A DNA stretch of 64,000 bases from a virus. The notes beneath the pieces were generated by a model. It was not told where the DNA came from, did not search any database, and was given only the letters and a program-made list of their open reading frames with translations. Where the stretch lies: IMG/VR virus record IMGVR_UViG_3300021197_000868, positions 32,001 through 96,000 of that record; one strand, given 5' to 3'. The translations under genes and the position numbers were made by a program. Of the stretch, positions 43,401 through 61,985 are shown piece by piece (positions within the stretch are counted from its first letter, which is position 1; each line of letters opens with the position of its first letter).

Positions 43401-44008
43401 CGACAAATACTGCTAATAGAGGACAATTATACACTAATGCAGATAATGAATTACATATGATTGCGGGTAATGGAACTGACTATAAGTTCTTAAAAACAGG
43501 ACTACATTCTATTTACATCCCTGCTTCTGCCATGTACCCTAATACAACAAATGGATGTTCAGCATTAACTCAAGTTGAATTGTCTAATGGGCCTGAAATA
43601 AAAGTATTAGATTTTGATACTGCTTCTGATGAGTTCTGCCAATTTACTATTTCATTCCCTAAGTCTTGGAATGAAGGAACATTAACTTATGAAGTTTATT
43701 GGATGGGTGGAAATACACATACTGGTGATGTTGTTTGGCAATTAAAGGGAGTTTGTTTTGACGATAGCGACCCCGTTGATACTACATTTGGAAGTCCTGC
43801 AAATACTACAGCAAAGGCTCATAGTGGGACTACTAATGATATTAACAGGTCTGTAAGTGCTTCTGCTTGTACGGTAAAGAATGCTACTACGGATTCAATT
43901 ACCTTTTTCCAACTTAATAGAGATATTTCTGCTGATAGTTATAACACCGATGCTAGATTATTAGGAATGAAGATATTCTATACAATTGATGCGGGGAATG
44001 ATGAATGA
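40409..44008 (+). CDS. Tail fibre / receptor-binding protein
   Basis: Repeats SRVGIGTASP, GNVGIGTDTP, GFVGIGTDSP and DKVSIGTGTV; ERMRID motifs; short shaft repeats (AVTLDKMA, QITYAKIQ). Confidence 0.8.
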   Translation: MSTNNPLSGHTDGTNDGLKDGDHILSPSLTNLYEGVHGNGILLPNDTAYGDSDRNDPPDLPGAISAGSAANQFIVKACNVILDGVVYAIGGGSNITVTLTKTTTEKIGTFVEIDSGKECIFVVVATAEGLKVTQTTPITTASGAYPTIAGGATSYLKTGGGAGANRQSIVLGTIRATNSGGTTAGNLNIQALSEYNDKRVFVRPSPLYLSPVTTGAVGATAELDDHTALAQIHGTGQHGALGANGVIWQSYGSQLGSTTAGDNDKDVVYYSGTHAARFTRSLFDRVLTSTATSLTLTSTDANILILTPGGNANIITNGTFPAGYVIHIRNLHTSNYVRFALTSSSSSTMVTYYEIAAATCASFVCTVSHADYPTFSLLMDDTIDTPQLAANAVTLDKMAGIVRGKIIVGDASGDPSYLAAGANGKLLVADANGDPSWTTVSGDVTISAGAVTIGNDKIDSQHYVDGSIDTAHVGDDQITYAKIQDVSATDRILGRDSASAGVIEEITPANVRTMLNVADGATAYNDAAAIAAVEGESTLVLQSGVTVGTDLKLSTSSDDAIIENVTSDKDIIFKANDSDGGGAGQEIMRIDGSTSRVGIGTASPTTALEVSGDTTISRSADLGQTRTLSIEGARNATGTDYARIDLENYDSNSGSPATYVGARISAVNDADGVDDGSLVLSTANAGTLAERMRIDDEGNVGIGTDTPTAKLHVKGTDAVLTIEDTSIGIAALTNAMSGINVVSAGMNAGSSKFGSAVKFLSTDPQLTTENPKFLAALIPRATETYDHDIDGGMALDFAITDNAQGATNVPVVKMTIDHTGFVGIGTDSPDANLHVVGAGSGDHLILEGTLGSAATSAPNMVLFRNGDDAAADIDDNDLIGQIVFRGENDASTPQEVDYATIEGGMDDTSDGSEDGHITFNLIEAGNLTEFMRLRAATRDVVVNDISDDIDFRVEGSNNANLLFTDASEDKVSIGTGTVDANALLTVEGAISLDEISAPTNTANRGQLYTNADNELHMIAGNGTDYKFLKTGLHSIYIPASAMYPNTTNGCSALTQVELSNGPEIKVLDFDTASDEFCQFTISFPKSWNEGTLTYEVYWMGGNTHTGDVVWQLKGVCFDDSDPVDTTFGSPANTTAKAHSGTTNDINRSVSASACTVKNATTDSITFFQLNRDISADSYNTDARLLGMKIFYTIDAGNDE

Positions 44009-44448
44009 GTTTTGGTTATGTTGTTTGTGGATTTGGTTCACATCCATCAAGAGGAACGCCTTTGGCGGCTTCAATCATTGAAGACGGCTCTGCGCCTTTA
44101 ATTGATTTAGTAGAACATGCCGATGTTGCGGGTAGTGGGGTTTTTACTACGGGTGCTGGTGGAATCCCAATATGGGATGTTTCAGTAGTCGCTACGGGCG
44201 GTACTGGTAGTTATACCTATACTTGGCAACATGCAGAAGTTCGTGATGTTACTAATTCATTCAGCGTTGGTTCTGCTGGAACAACAAATGCGGCTAGATA
44301 CAATACTTTGGCTATTGCTGGAACAATTCCGGGAAGTGCTTCAGACCCACCAAATGACGCTCTTTACGAACTTACATGTACGGTAGATGACGGCGTTGAT
44401 ACCGCACAAGCAACTATCCAATGTGCGGTAGTTGCTATCCCACTATGA
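44005..44448 (+). CDS. Ig-like/PKD-type fibre-associated protein
   Basis: ATGGTGSYTYTW and YELTCTVDDG; last gene of the + block. Confidence 0.55.
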   Translation: MSFGYVVCGFGSHPSRGTPLAASIIEDGSAPLIDLVEHADVAGSGVFTTGAGGIPIWDVSVVATGGTGSYTYTWQHAEVRDVTNSFSVGSAGTTNAARYNTLAIAGTIPGSASDPPNDALYELTCTVDDGVDTAQATIQCAVVAIPL

Positions 44449-44613
44449 TTGAGTGAACACGCTATCCTGCCACATATGACCGCACTCTTTGCAGCACCAT
44501 AGGCTCAGGCGCTCCTTGTCACCATCAAGGAAGCGTGCCTGTAGCCGCCTAGGTATATGCTCGTGACCGCATCTGCGACACTTGACTTTCATCTTGTCTA
44601 GTAGTCTACCCAT
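44443..44613 (-). CDS. 56-aa TFS/TFIIS-C-like zinc-ribbon protein (absent from the ORF track)
   Basis: Manual translation: [61 protein letters not shown] coupling to the thermosome stop and a GGTGAG RBS. Confidence 0.7.
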   Translation of the reverse strand: MGRLLDKMKVKCRRCGHEHIPRRLQARFLDGDKERLSLWCCKECGHMWQDSVFTQS

Positions 44614-46088
44614 CACTCACCACGTCTACCGATGATGTCATCTATTCTGAGTATAGCAGTAGTGACTTCGGTTGCACTAGTGATAGCACTTTGAATCAAT
44701 GACATTGGCTCATAGACTTGAGCGTCATCCATGTCTTTAATCCCGCCTGTCTCTATATCAGGACCGAATGGTAGACCTGAGTGCCTCATGGCTAGAACAG
44801 TGTCTAGTGCATCGTGACCTGCGTTTTCAGCGATAGTACCCGGAATAGATTCAAGCGCATCAGCGAATGCCTCTATAGCCATTTGAGCACGTCCACCTAC
44901 TTCATTAGCGTTAGCACGCAGATGAGATGCTAGAGCGACATATGTAGCGCCTCCACCGTAGCAGATAGCGTCACCGTTAGCCACTAGTGAGACGACACCC
45001 AAAGCGTCATCGAACCCACGTTGAACTTCATCGAGTGTAGACTGTGTAGCACCGAATAGAACTAGAGTAGCCTCACTAGATGCTAGGTCACTGCTCACGA
45101 ATAGATAGTCTACGTCATTGTAACGACGACGCTCTATTACTGCTGCGCTTACTTCCATATCTGATTCAGGTATATGGTATGGCTTTACACCAAACTCATT
45201 ACCTAGCCTCTTCATAGTGCTTTCAGGTACTCTTCTCACTACGAAGATATTGCGCTTTCGTAGATACTGTACTACTGTATCATGTACACCATCACGCACT
45301 ATCACGACATTAGCACCGCTGTCTACGATGTGTTTTGCTGAGTCAAGCAATTGCTCACGACCAACATTTTTCAGTGTACTATATGAGGCAGCATCAACTT
45401 GAACCTGAACATTACCATCTTGCTTCTGCTCCTCAAGACCGTTATTGATTAGAAGAACACAAGTGCTATCGCCTTTGAAATCTCCATCGTTTGTAGTTAC
45501 ATCTTTGTTTAGAACTACACCGTTGAATAGATAAGAGTCAGCCAATGCACCACCGGGTGCTGCTAGAACACGAACGTCTGAAGCGTCACCTACTGCATTG
45601 ATTGTATCGACACATAGTTGAGCGACCTTTTGGTCTGAAGTTTCTAAAGACTTACCAGTGATAGCGGTCTTAGCGATAGATTGTAACTGTCTCTCACCTT
45701 CAACTGCAAGACTAGGTAGGAATGCCTGTACCATGTCTCTTGCTTTACTGTAGCCTTTGTTTACTACATTAGGATGAAGACCCTTGTCAAACAATGTCTC
45801 AGCGTTACTTAGTAACTGACCTGCTATGACTACGCTACTTGTAGTACCGTCGTAACAGTTAGTCTCCTGAACCTTAGACACTTCTACTATCATCTTAGCA
45901 GCAGGGTGGGCACTATCTAACTCACGTAGGATAGTAGCGCCATCGTTTGTTACTATGACGTTACCACCACCGTCGACCATCATCTTGTCCATACCCATAG
46001 GCCCTAGTGTAGTACGAACTGTACTCACAATCCGCTTCACTGCTTCTATGTTCATCCTTTGTGCATTGTGGTTTTTATTTTCACTCAT
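44613..46088 (-). CDS. ths: Group II chaperonin (thermosome)
   Basis: [55 protein letters not shown]. Confidence 0.95.
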
Positions 46089-46690
46089 TTCCAGTTCACC
46101 TCTATTTCTACAACTGCCCCATCTTCCAAGGAGCGACTCTTAATCACTCCATTTTCACGGCCATATTCGTATAGGTCGTAGGTCAATTGTGAATCTTTCA
46201 GACAGTATTCTGCTACCTCTAAGTAGCGCCCTGCTCTCCATGCTTCAGGGGCATCGTGGCTTGACATGCTCTTACCGACATCCAGTGTATTACGGGCCAG
46301 TAGTTCTAGGCTCGTAGCGATGTTTTTACCACCGGCTTTGTTTACAAGTAATTTAGTATCAATTACATTTTCTGCTTTATTCATTAAGTCTCCAGCAGTC
46401 CAGCAGTCTAGTGCTGCATTAAGAACAGGAAGGTCGAACTTCTTGATGTTGTGACCTAGGATGACACCACCTCCGTCTATGTGCTTCTGTAAGTGGTCAC
46501 CTAGTATACGTGGGTGTAAGTCATGGACTTCAGCCCCAACCATCTCGATGTCTTCTTTACTAAACACATGACCGTTTTCACCATCCCATGTTGCTACCAC
46601 TGTAGGTTCAAAGAGAGAGTGTTTATCCCACCCTCCTATCTCATACGAATAGTTACCAGTCTCAATATCCAATGCCATTACTTTACTCAT
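46085..46690 (-). CDS. DEDD-family 3'-5' exonuclease (RNase H-like)
   Basis: [22 protein letters not shown]. Confidence 0.85.
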
Positions 46691-48093
46691 GCTTCAGCCT
46701 CCTTTAGTCTGATGTAAACAACAGCACCGTCCTTTGCTGCGTTGAACATATATGCCGCCCAATCGTTAAACTTCTTGAACCCTGTGGCTTTGGTGATGTG
46801 ATGATTCTGACAATACTGTTGGATGACTGCCGCCTTCTTACGCCAGCCGTCACCACGCTTGTCTAGTTCTACAGATGACACTGAGTTGAACGCTGCCAAC
46901 CAGTCCTTCCTGTGTACTTCCTTCTCCATCTTCTTAGCACCGACTTCTACTTCTCCTTCTAACCATTGGATTAGATTCTTGAATAAGTCGTATAGAATAT
47001 CCTTAGCCATGTCAAGATGCTCACCAGTAACTACCCACGTGTCATCCATCATCGCTATGTGTGTAGCGAGGATAACTGAGTAGTTCTCCATAGCAGGTAC
47101 GAACGATGCAACAACATCAGCGATAGCGAAGTTAAGGTCTTTCAGTAACCCATAGAAGTCTTCTACCACGTCGTATGTAGCGGCGTAGAATGATTCATCG
47201 ACAGTGAACATTTCATGCTTGATTGATTGTACTAATTTTTCTTGCTCAGAGCGAGAATACTCACCCCATTCAGTAAAAGTAGTTTCAGTTAGATTCAGAA
47301 CACGGTCACGTAGGCGCTTCTCTAATCCAGTAAAGTAAGCGACGATGTCATCGTATGATACGTCACCACCAGTACCTTTAGTGAACGCCCGGTTCATACG
47401 TATCTGAGAAACCTCTTGTCTTCTGTCCATGTCCCAGTGCGACCAGTATAGCAGGACACGCTGGAAGATACCCTTAGTTAGAACGTACTCCTTAACCCCC
47501 TTCGGTGGGTAGGTAGTAATCCATAACGAGGCTAGTGACTCAGTCTCTATCCTCCTACCACTCAAGTGCTTTACTAGCACGTTGCTATTACTGCCAATTG
47601 GGTTACAGGCTGACTGTAGATAGAGTACAGTCTCTTGACTGTGCTTACCCGGATTGAGAATGATAGAGCCTTCATCGAAGTTCAGCGCTTTCTGCCCACC
47701 TAGCATACCGTCTGTCTGTACCTGTACCTGTTCCTTCTTACCGTCTTCATTAACACGGACTTCGGAAGTTACACCACCCACTAGACCAGCATCTGACCCA
47801 GTAGTATATGCGTCACTATCTAAACCGCAATCCTTCAGTACGTCACCTACGAACTCCCAAGCAATTGACTTACCAGTCCTAGAAGGTTGAATCCAAAAAC
47901 AATGTACACGTGGGTCAAGGTGAGTTGAATCCCACGGTATACGCACATAGGGCGCTGCTACCTGTCCTTGTATAAAGAAGAATGATAGCATCGCTGGTAT
48001 GTCATTGTCTATACTTACTCTACCGAACTCCTCCACGTAACCCTTGAAGAAGTCGAACTTGTTGACCACTTGGTATTCTGTTGCTTTGCGCAT
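46687..48093 (-). CDS. MCM-like AAA+ ATPase/helicase without an N-terminal domain
   Basis: Walker A PSRTGKS, GSDAGLVG, Walker B LNFDEG, candidate arginine finger GIFQR. Confidence 0.6.
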   Translation of the reverse strand: MRKATEYQVVNKFDFFKGYVEEFGRVSIDNDIPAMLSFFFIQGQVAAPYVRIPWDSTHLDPRVHCFWIQPSRTGKSIAWEFVGDVLKDCGLDSDAYTTGSDAGLVGGVTSEVRVNEDGKKEQVQVQTDGMLGGQKALNFDEGSIILNPGKHSQETVLYLQSACNPIGSNSNVLVKHLSGRRIETESLASLWITTYPPKGVKEYVLTKGIFQRVLLYWSHWDMDRRQEVSQIRMNRAFTKGTGGDVSYDDIVAYFTGLEKRLRDRVLNLTETTFTEWGEYSRSEQEKLVQSIKHEMFTVDESFYAATYDVVEDFYGLLKDLNFAIADVVASFVPAMENYSVILATHIAMMDDTWVVTGEHLDMAKDILYDLFKNLIQWLEGEVEVGAKKMEKEVHRKDWLAAFNSVSSVELDKRGDGWRKKAAVIQQYCQNHHITKATGFKKFNDWAAYMFNAAKDGAVVYIRLKEAEA

Positions 48094-48225: not shown

Positions 48226-48924
48226 TTACCGTTTCACCGTTCTTTGGATATGAACAGCCTCTTCACTGGTGAGAACATTGACTATCATCTGCCTTCGTTG
48301 TTCTCCTAATCCCTTGACTTGCTTCAATGAATCAGGGAACATCATCTCCTCTATGTTACCACACTTCTCTAGTAGGCGGTCTACTAAGTCAGGGCCTATA
48401 CCGGGTATAGCCAGTAGGACATCCTTACGAACATCGTTAGTAGACACTCTCCTTACAGCCTTAGCACCGTGGCTACTGGCTGGCTTGTGTAACTTGTCAT
48501 GTAGTTTAGTTACGAACAGCGCAGCCTCACTGACGTTAGGAGTATAGAATACCTGACAGTCGAAGTCAGCCATGATGCGAGCGATAGTACCAGTAAGTTC
48601 ACTCTGTACTCTAGTGTGAGTTAGACGCTTGCCGTTATTCTTAGCAACGGCTACGTGCTTCGCTACGCTCCCATGTACGAGCAGGAAGAATCTTTCATAG
48701 TTAGCATCCATGTTCTCTAACTGTCTCCAAAGATGACCGCTATGGCTTGATTGGAATAGGTCGCTAATACTCTTGGCTTCTACACATGCAGCCCCAAGTA
48801 AGTAGTCACCTACTACTAGAGCCTGTCTAGCAACAGAGAGTCCTGACTTCTGTGCCTTTCTTAGGATAGATTCGCATAAGGGTCCACGTTCGTTACTGTC
48901 TATTATTAGGTCAGGTTTCATCAT
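48226..48924 (-). CDS. XPF/ERCC4-family structure-specific nuclease with a HhH domain
   Basis: IIDSNE, VGDY, VEAKS..DL, and IPGIG / VKGLG helix-hairpin-helix motifs. Confidence 0.9.
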   Translation of the reverse strand: MMKPDLIIDSNERGPLCESILRKAQKSGLSVARQALVVGDYLLGAACVEAKSISDLFQSSHSGHLWRQLENMDANYERFFLLVHGSVAKHVAVAKNNGKRLTHTRVQSELTGTIARIMADFDCQVFYTPNVSEAALFVTKLHDKLHKPASSHGAKAVRRVSTNDVRKDVLLAIPGIGPDLVDRLLEKCGNIEEMMFPDSLKQVKGLGEQRRQMIVNVLTSEEAVHIQRTVKR

Positions 48925-49163
48925 TTTTCCTCCTTTGGTTTGTGGGCGATACAGAACTTATGTCCTACCACCCTCCATCTAGCGCATCTATTACCCTTCA
49001 TTCGATTTCCACGGCTTGATTTACTTATACCTTCACACTGCCATTCAGGAGGAGGATGCGCTGTAGAGCACTTGTAGCATTTAGGAAGAAAGCCCTCAAT
49101 TTTAAGATTACTCGGTCTAACAACTATCAGTGCCTCGCAGAAATGACATTTTAGTCTAGGCAC
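48921..49163 (-). CDS. Small Cys/His zinc-finger protein
   Basis: CHFC, CYKC, C...C...CIAH. Confidence 0.6.
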   Translation of the reverse strand: MPRLKCHFCEALIVVRPSNLKIEGFLPKCYKCSTAHPPPEWQCEGISKSSRGNRMKGNRCARWRVVGHKFCIAHKPKEEK

Positions 49164-61650: not shown

Positions 61651-61985
61651 ACATATTCCTCTATTAGTTCTTTGAAAGCATTCTGCCATACACTAGGTCT
61701 TGGTTGAGTACCTACACCAAACAACTCCAGTGTTAGGTTTCTCATTTTGATAGCACTGACTTTCATACCGTTGCGCTTTGCTGCTAGGTAGATACAGTCA
61801 ACCATCAAACCATGTGGGCTACGTGAAGCAGTCCACATAGGTGAACGTTCTACTTTCATCTGTAGTATCTTCGCTGAAGCGAACTGCTCTACAGTCAGAC
61901 CTATGCTGGTCGCTAACTCAAGAGCCCTATCATCTCTACCGTGTGCATCATAAGCACGCCTTAGTGCATCTGCTTTCTCACTCAT
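61647..61985 (-). CDS. Truncated TFB/TFIIB-like single cyclin-fold protein
   Basis: RSPHGLMVDCIYLAAKRNG matches the TFB repeat pattern (GR/KSPxGLAAAALYIAS..G). Confidence 0.6.
   Translation of the reverse strand: MSEKADALRRAYDAHGRDDRALELATSIGLTVEQFASAKILQMKVERSPMWTASRSPHGLMVDCIYLAAKRNGMKVSAIKMRNLTLELFGVGTQPRPSVWQNAFKELIEEYV

Follow-up and report, generated by a model that had tools for sequence, protein, structure and literature searches.

A strongly conserved zinc-ribbon microprotein at the end of the replication genes of magrovirus-like viruses, and its possible role as a nucleic-acid-binding accessory

What does a zinc-ribbon microprotein of 56 amino acids (aa), encoded immediately behind a thermosome gene, do for the virus that carries it? 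The question is raised by the minus-strand coding sequence at 44443-44613 of a 64,000-nucleotide stretch of viral DNA (hereafter the window), which comprises bases 32001-96000 of the 104,930-bp virus record IMGVR_UViG_3300021197_000868, rated 97% complete. The virus is presumably magrovirus-like, with a host among the Poseidoniales. Magroviruses infect uncultured hosts and are reported to rank with the most abundant viruses in surface seawater, some of them encoding a thermosome (PMC5434244); the magrovirus literature examined makes no mention of zinc, a ribbon or TFIIS. A first, sequence-only reading of the window had taken the open reading frame (ORF) for a mimic of the C-terminal ribbon (C-ribbon) of the transcription factor TFS, translationally coupled to the thermosome gene and inhibiting or redirecting host transcription. 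The gene is real and strongly constrained, and it is present in most, though not all, magrovirus-like tailed viruses (presumed to be viruses of Poseidoniales). Its product we would tentatively cast, at somewhat under an even chance, as a nucleic-acid-binding accessory of the replication and recombination genes at whose end it stands.

The gene opens with an ATG at 44613-44611 and closes with a TAG stop at 44445-44443, which is included in the coordinates given above. Its translation holds both CRRCGH and LQARFLDGDKERLSLWCCKECGHMW, the strings quoted in the sequence-only reading, and bears out the minus-strand ORF of 56 aa reported there. In the window the start is shared with the preceding gene: within the sequence TGATG, the A of the ATG doubles as the last base of the thermosome TGA (44615-44613), giving a 1-base overlap, and a Shine-Dalgarno-like GGTGA at 44617-44621 (minus strand) lies 4-8 nucleotides (nt) 5' of the ATG, inside the 3' end of the thermosome gene. 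This motif probably functions as the ribosome-binding site; GGTGA, GGAG or GAGG recurs 5' of the start in relatives, with or without a thermosome overlap. A GTG lies one codon earlier but is an unlikely start, since MGRLL opens the protein at the same position in every relative. At its 3' end the gene overlaps by 6 nt a convergent, plus-strand ORF of 147 aa (44005-44448), which has weak matches to SprB repeats and to Hoc-like proteins, ends the structural block and stands where the replication and structural modules meet.

Evidence for selection on this short frame comes from several directions. The ORF is conserved in related viruses, as the sequence-only reading needed it to be, being intact in 43 of 43 related IMG/VR loci at 73-100% aa identity. 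Among close relatives the median pairwise ratio of nonsynonymous to synonymous divergence (dN/dS) is 0.096 at a median dS of 1.36, and contigs from three independent marine metagenome runs show zero differences across the gene. It is conserved as well as its best-conserved neighbours and outdoes the thermosome in divergent thermosome-bearing relatives, with 74-82% identity for the microprotein and 61-68% for the thermosome. Both a chance ORF and a read-through extension of the thermosome were considered and rejected, given purifying selection and the existence of thermosome-less relatives in which the gene is free-standing. An oligo-dT RNA run covers part of the thermosome gene only, from a relative that is 90-99% identical, and is silent on expression at 44443-44613.

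The gene is single-copy in the 104,930-bp record and appears to be viral property. Across 185,579 prokaryote species genomes (one each) a single true match was returned, on NZQM01000043.1 (locus L049), a contig of 31,462 bp filed under a Parvibaculum sp. metagenome-assembled genome and carrying the ribbon gene at 79% identity. Because it equals in size the IMG/VR viral contig behind locus L026, it is probably a mis-binned magrovirus contig, and beyond it no cellular copy was seen among those genomes. Searches of GenBank phages with tblastn gave zero matches.

What stays constant in the gene's surroundings is its place: it closes the replication and recombination string, where that string meets the structural block. 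In the window this string runs leftward through a primase-like gene, an ERCC4 nuclease, a 468-aa protein, a DEDDy-type 3'-5' exonuclease and the thermosome, with the microprotein last; giant tail proteins occupy the opposite strand. The exonuclease (201 aa; 46085-46690, minus strand) matches phrog_403, 'DNA polymerase exonuclease subunit', at E 3.9e-12, its D-x-E, HNIxxFD and YCxxD motifs being invariant in an exonuclease alignment (A4), and the thermosome, a group II chaperonin (44613-46088, minus strand), matches PF00118 at E 2.5e-123. The order exonuclease, thermosome, zinc ribbon is common to all 43 close loci, the last two genes overlapping in many of them and lying 90-700 nt apart in several.

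A wider survey took in 80 exonuclease-anchored loci, the relatives compared including L055-L132 and L165-L212, and 64 of the 80 carry the microprotein gene. In 36 thermosome-less loci it directly follows the exonuclease after a gap of 100-150 nt, behind the same upstream genes in the same order (primase-like gene, ERCC4 nuclease, homologue of the 468-aa protein, exonuclease), and is followed by convergent tail-fibre genes. Thermosome-bearing loci number 32; in 28 the gene lies near the thermosome, downstream on the same strand in 25 and on the opposite strand in three (L161, L162 and L164), and from four it is missing. Altogether 16 loci gave no match: 12 are well covered and lack a small Cys4 ORF within 4 kb, and four run off the contig. 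In one lineage that is without the ribbon gene, its slot is occupied by two small ORFs of 58 and 74 aa with hydrophobic stretches, on the opposite strand (L202:4777-5185, minus). The synteny suggests that, in one lineage, the thermosome gene was inserted between the exonuclease and microprotein genes, and the coupling to the thermosome is secondary because the insertion was made into an older exonuclease-ribbon string. The translational coupling proposed from the sequence alone is thus present in the window as the TGATG overlap but is not a feature of the family, as the thermosome-less loci attest; likewise the synteny with the thermosome that was to be looked for in related viruses is complete in the close loci but does not hold throughout the wider relatives. 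Lying under the usual gene-calling cut-offs and yet found in some 80% of exonuclease-anchored loci, the microprotein makes a good target for expression and binding studies.

What the family conserves was judged from a wide alignment of 39 sequences (A2). When every fetched locus was scanned with a hidden Markov model (HMM) of A2, 192 matches came back, with 131 unique core sequences in two subfamilies, and an exhaustive HMMER search of 1.84 billion representatives found about 35 small proteins (43-155 aa) matching the full profile, none of which is a fused form or has a second known domain. Proteins of 230-3403 aa that matched only profile positions 35-55, repeatedly, were judged to be zinc-finger arrays resembling the second knuckle and were set aside. 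For the distant members, P0045 yielded no viral locus. The only invariant positions in A2 are C12, C15, C41, C44 and W48; R23 is present in at least 90%, and C40 is not conserved. On the minus strand of the window, the first zinc knuckle, C12-R-R-C15, falls at 44569-44580 (both Cys invariant in alignments A1 and A2) and the second, C41-K-E-C44 followed by G-H-M-W48, at 44470-44493. Between them lie I20-P-R-R23 (44545-44556), which starts strand 2 and is the family's most conserved non-Cys motif, and the hairpin tip F28-L-D-G-D-K-E34 (44512-44532), at the position of the TFS Asp-Glu pair. The inter-knuckle spacer ranges from 23 to 29 residues, with 24 in 118 matches and 25 in 69, among them the window protein.

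The two subfamilies differ in length and in the tip. The first has an N-terminal MGRLLDxL helix and the consensus ...CRxCGHEHIPRRLQARYLDGDRERISLWxCKECGHIW; the second is shorter, with the consensus ...CPYCGEETIPRRILGFYVGSPxSVKIWECRECKALW. Common to both, across the 131 unique sequences, are IPRR(I/L), a G/A-x-Y/F strand and (L/I)W-x-C-x-x-C-x-x-(L/I)W. The tip reads DGD[KR]E in one subfamily, YVGS in the other and NNHQ, VNER or ADGE elsewhere; it varies in length, and the form FLDGDKE is kept only among close relatives. The conserved working surface is therefore best read, from these patterns, as the IPRR strand and the knuckle face rather than the hairpin tip. AlphaFold2 returned a mean predicted local distance difference test (pLDDT) value of 67 with close homologues only and of 80.4 with A2, the latter model having a helix at 3-8 and strands at 22-27, 35-40 and 47-49. 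The fold is that of a classic zinc ribbon; residues 28-34 form the loop of its long hairpin, and only the 6-residue helix precedes the ribbon.

By these measures the microprotein appears to form a family of its own, just under the threshold of Pfam DUF7479 (PF24292). That family is the top Pfam match of 20/20 close members and of 26/39 sequences in A2, and the alignment covers both knuckles, at profile positions 2-40 of 60, leaving the C-terminal third unmatched. Singly scanned members score 17-23 bits, and the microprotein itself (P0001) 20.7, against a gathering score of 27; the best family E is 4.7e-6, and cluster P0005 carries a precomputed match to PF24292.2, a newer version of the model. 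The DUF7479 name is uninformative as to function, since the 14 control genomes yielded no member above the cut-off and a literature search turned up neither DUF7479 nor PF24292. Among PHROGs the match is to phrog_16644 (E 0.0039), a family of unknown function.

In the role of replication and recombination accessory, the microprotein, which is basic (12 K/R against 7 D/E), would be a binding module stabilised by zinc, its conserved strand and knuckle face gripping nucleic acid or else an acidic protein surface. It would be made together with the replication and recombination genes, and would act neither as a transcript-cleavage factor nor as an inhibitor of the TFS4 type working through its hairpin tip. 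A binder of DNA or of a replication enzyme would be a new accessory of archaeal-virus replication. Several points weigh against this assignment. Firstly, operon position in a virus may reflect the timing of expression rather than function. Secondly, the gene is absent from the 12 well-covered exonuclease-anchored loci noted above. Thirdly, a strict link to the replication genes is weakened by L161, L162, L164 and a separate locus on a 100-kb IMG/VR contig of a divergent relative, L046, in all of which the gene is on the other strand; in L046 it lies directly 3' of a tail-fibre-like gene. Fourthly, the best named matches in sequence and structure, weak as they are, are to ribbons of the transcription apparatus (TFS, TFB and RpoP). 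A complex prediction of the DEDDy exonuclease (A4) with the ribbon (A2) scored 0.00; it gave no answer and weighs neither way on binding.

The transcription-apparatus matches bring back the proposal with which the locus was first approached, namely that the microprotein is a stand-alone mimic of the TFS C-ribbon which enters the nucleoside triphosphate (NTP)-entry funnel, or secondary channel, of the host RNA polymerase (RNAP) and inhibits or redirects transcription as TFS4 does. On the evidence that follows we consider it unlikely. The resemblance itself is easily described. The ribbons of TFS, TFIIS, Rpb9, A12.2 and C11 share with the microprotein Cys4 C-x2-C knuckles at a spacing of 24-25, G-H after the knuckles and Trp after the second, as well as a three-stranded sheet with a protruding hairpin (PF01096; TIGR01384; PDB 1qyp, 1tfi). 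In a phmmer search of the PDB the best full-length match was the Thermococcus celer TFS C-ribbon, 1qyp (E 0.0048, residues 5-49), followed by Rpb9, C11 and A12.2 at E 0.05-0.5, and in NCBIfam it was TFS_arch (TIGR01384), at E 2.6e-4 over positions 60-99 of 101. Yet no match is significant or above a curated cut-off: TIGR01384 scores 21.6 bits against a cut-off of 64.75, and PF01096 (TFIIS_C) 14.3 bits against a gathering score of 21 (E 0.037), with TFIIS_C matched by 7/20 close members and 2/39 A2 sequences. In Pfam, moreover, TFIIS_C is outranked for P0001 not only by DUF7479 but also by the gpA terminase ribbon (18.9 bits) and the TFIIB ribbon (18.6 bits). Widening the query did not help, a profile search of the PDB with close homologues returning nothing below E 0.29 and 1qyp at E 0.88. 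Against 1qyp the single sequence outdoes the family profile, and family information does not reinforce the link.

Profile comparison tells a similar story. From the TFS segment matched by 1qyp, 23 TFS proteins were collected and 14 of them aligned (A3). Against the TFS C-ribbon, hhalign gave the family a probability of 92-96% and a score of 39-42, as against a null of 150 column shuffles with Cys fixed (12 +/- 3, maximum 24.6). The wide family, however, was aligned first to the N-terminal ribbon (N-ribbon) of TFS, with a score of 37 for the N-ribbon against 42.5 for the C-ribbon, and among 17,982 six-frame ORFs an HMM of the TFS N-ribbon finds family ORFs at a best E of 1.8e-5, against 1.8e-4 for the C-ribbon HMM. 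In the TFS hairpin, Q85, R87, D90 and E91 are invariant in A3, where the window protein reads LQARFLDGDKE; the motif Q-x-R-[SA]-[AG]-D-E is absent, and its Q, R, D and E positions are unconserved in the family (A2; 131 sequences). What remains, C-x2-C, about 24 residues, C-x2-C and an aromatic residue after the second knuckle, is common to many ribbon families.

Structure comparison places TFS among the nearest neighbours. Foldseek placed 1qyp first in the PDB (TM 0.53, 26% identity, E 0.054), followed by many C-ribbons of Pol I, III and V subunits and by TFIIS, with no PDB match at E <=1e-3, and in both the PDB and BFVD its top matches are mostly ribbons of the TFS/TFIIS type. In BFVD the best E is 0.042 and the matches comprise TFIIS proteins of giant viruses, a TFIIB-like protein, a terminase and unnamed phage proteins; ESM Atlas returned only unnamed clusters of small archaeal and bacterial proteins (score 0.94). 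The sequence-blind VIA-align ties these families together, all Z values being <=3.6: NrdR and ribosomal ribbons score 3.4-3.6, TFIIS 3.1, 1qyp 2.9 and TFS4 2.8, and RAZR, NrdR, a ribosomal protein, TFIIS, Brf1, 1qyp and TFS4 all fall within one Z unit. The microprotein is accordingly a zinc ribbon of a general kind that the archaeal transcription apparatus employs; an assignment to the TFS C-ribbon family is not possible, because no match is significant, the curated cut-offs are failed, and the N-ribbon and other ribbons match as well. Of the TFS-like ribbon of the sequence-only reading, then, the Cys4 ribbon stands and the nearest solved sequences and structures are indeed the C-ribbons of TFS, Rpb9, C11 and TFIIS, but the likeness is below cut-offs and not C-ribbon-specific; and the profile comparison with TFIIS_C that it called for does yield a high hhalign probability for the TFS C-ribbon, but the N-ribbon, DUF7479 and TFIIB match comparably or better.

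TFS4 inhibition depends on a shortened C-ribbon hairpin with two or three Lys residues (KKK) (PMC5715097), and TFS4 grips RNAP through an N-ribbon seated on jaw and lobe, a linker contributing extra strands to the jaw, and a basic C-ribbon that occupies the acidic funnel (PMC8448823). The microprotein is like TFS4 (PDB 7oqy, chain Y) in having no catalytic Asp-Glu pair and a basic surface, and the VIA-align match extends over 41 residues; two observations of the sequence-only reading, that the hairpin LDGDKE is without the catalytic dyad (no adjacent Asp-Glu pair occurs) and that the N-terminal ribbon is absent (there is a single ribbon only), proved correct. TFS4 nevertheless consists of two ribbons and a linker with a short Lys hairpin, where the microprotein has one ribbon with a longer, variable tip of mixed charge: its spacer is 25 against 24 in TFS and its hairpin one residue longer, whereas that of TFS4 is shorter, and the YVGS tip of the large short subfamily is neither acidic nor basic. 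No RNAP-anchoring module, be it N-ribbon and linker or TFIIS domain II, precedes the ribbon in the 56-aa protein, as jaw and lobe anchoring would require (PMC8448823), and the fused form was not seen in the 1.84 billion representatives. The conserved IPRR strand, conversely, has no TFS counterpart. TFS4 is, finally, a host protein confined to Sulfolobales, and the microprotein is viral.

A second alternative keeps the microprotein in transcription but takes it away from the funnel, as a DNA-binding ribbon or as a binder of the RNAP dock resembling the TFB ribbon, which would switch expression from replication to structural genes. The position of the gene, always at the replication/structural junction on either strand, fits such a switch, as does the presence of the DNA-binding NrdR ribbon among the top VIA-align matches (Z 3.4-3.5). 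The N-ribbon of TFB/TFIIB (PF08271) is also a small Cys4 archaeal transcription ribbon and, as noted, matches P0001 better than TFIIS_C does, but it is below its 29-bit cut-off, is aligned over positions 2-33 of 43 and, in the microprotein, is followed by no B-reader or cyclin domains. In L046 the microprotein gene converges on a full-length TFB gene (L046:6241-7158, minus; TFIIB repeats E 9.8e-36, zinc ribbon E 3.2e-12) that lies beside the thermosome, directly downstream of it. This neighbourhood is not general, however, TFB being found in none of the other 211 fetched loci (1/212) nor in the window; all the matches are sub-threshold and unspecific, and no target site or promoter motif is tied to the gene. 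We accordingly rate this reading as improbable too. A weak match to the TFIIB cyclin repeat, below cut-off (E 0.0047, 13.8 bits), lies elsewhere in the window at 61746-61835 (minus strand), within a 115-aa frame.

A further proposal is that the microprotein is a minimised viral descendant of a ribbon of the TFS/Rpb9 type, docking in the Poseidoniales RNAP funnel through its basic IPRR face, without an N-terminal anchor, and reprogramming host transcription. Were this true, no earlier archaeal virus would have been seen to encode a secondary-channel factor, and this one would be carried by most members of one of the most abundant marine virus groups. If the microprotein does bind RNAP, it would show an archaeal virus taking control of transcription by a new route. 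Its basic charge, a trait that it shares with the funnel-binding TFS4 ribbon (PMC8448823), may be compatible with electrostatic docking in the acidic RNAP funnel, a possibility that nothing specific supports, and the descent as a whole we regard as quite unlikely. The one archaeal-virus RNAP inhibitor brought into the comparison, ATV RIP/ORF145, binds the DNA-binding channel and is not a zinc ribbon (PMC8448823); it is like the microprotein in being a small viral protein proposed to act on host RNAP, but no relation between the two was seen in sequence or fold.

Very improbable indeed is that the microprotein serves the thermosome as co-factor, regulator or dedicated client: the overlap of ATG and TGA here and in many close relatives, and the succession of the two genes in 43/43 close loci, speak for it, and against it stand the 36 thermosome-less loci with the gene directly behind the exonuclease, the four thermosome-bearing loci without it, the opposite strand in three more thermosome-bearing exonuclease-anchored loci and in L046, and the gaps of 90-700 nt in several close relatives.

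Two other products of the replication string were also noted. The 468-aa protein (46687-48093, minus strand) has a GKS motif (SRTGKS) and belongs to no Pfam, NCBIfam or PHROG family. In each relative inspected it is nevertheless conserved, at 23-51% identity, beside the genes for the ERCC4 nuclease and the exonuclease. Further upstream, between the primase-like and ERCC4 nuclease genes, lies an 80-aa Cys/His-rich ORF (48921-49163, minus strand) with no Pfam match above threshold, which might encode another small metal-binding protein belonging to this string.

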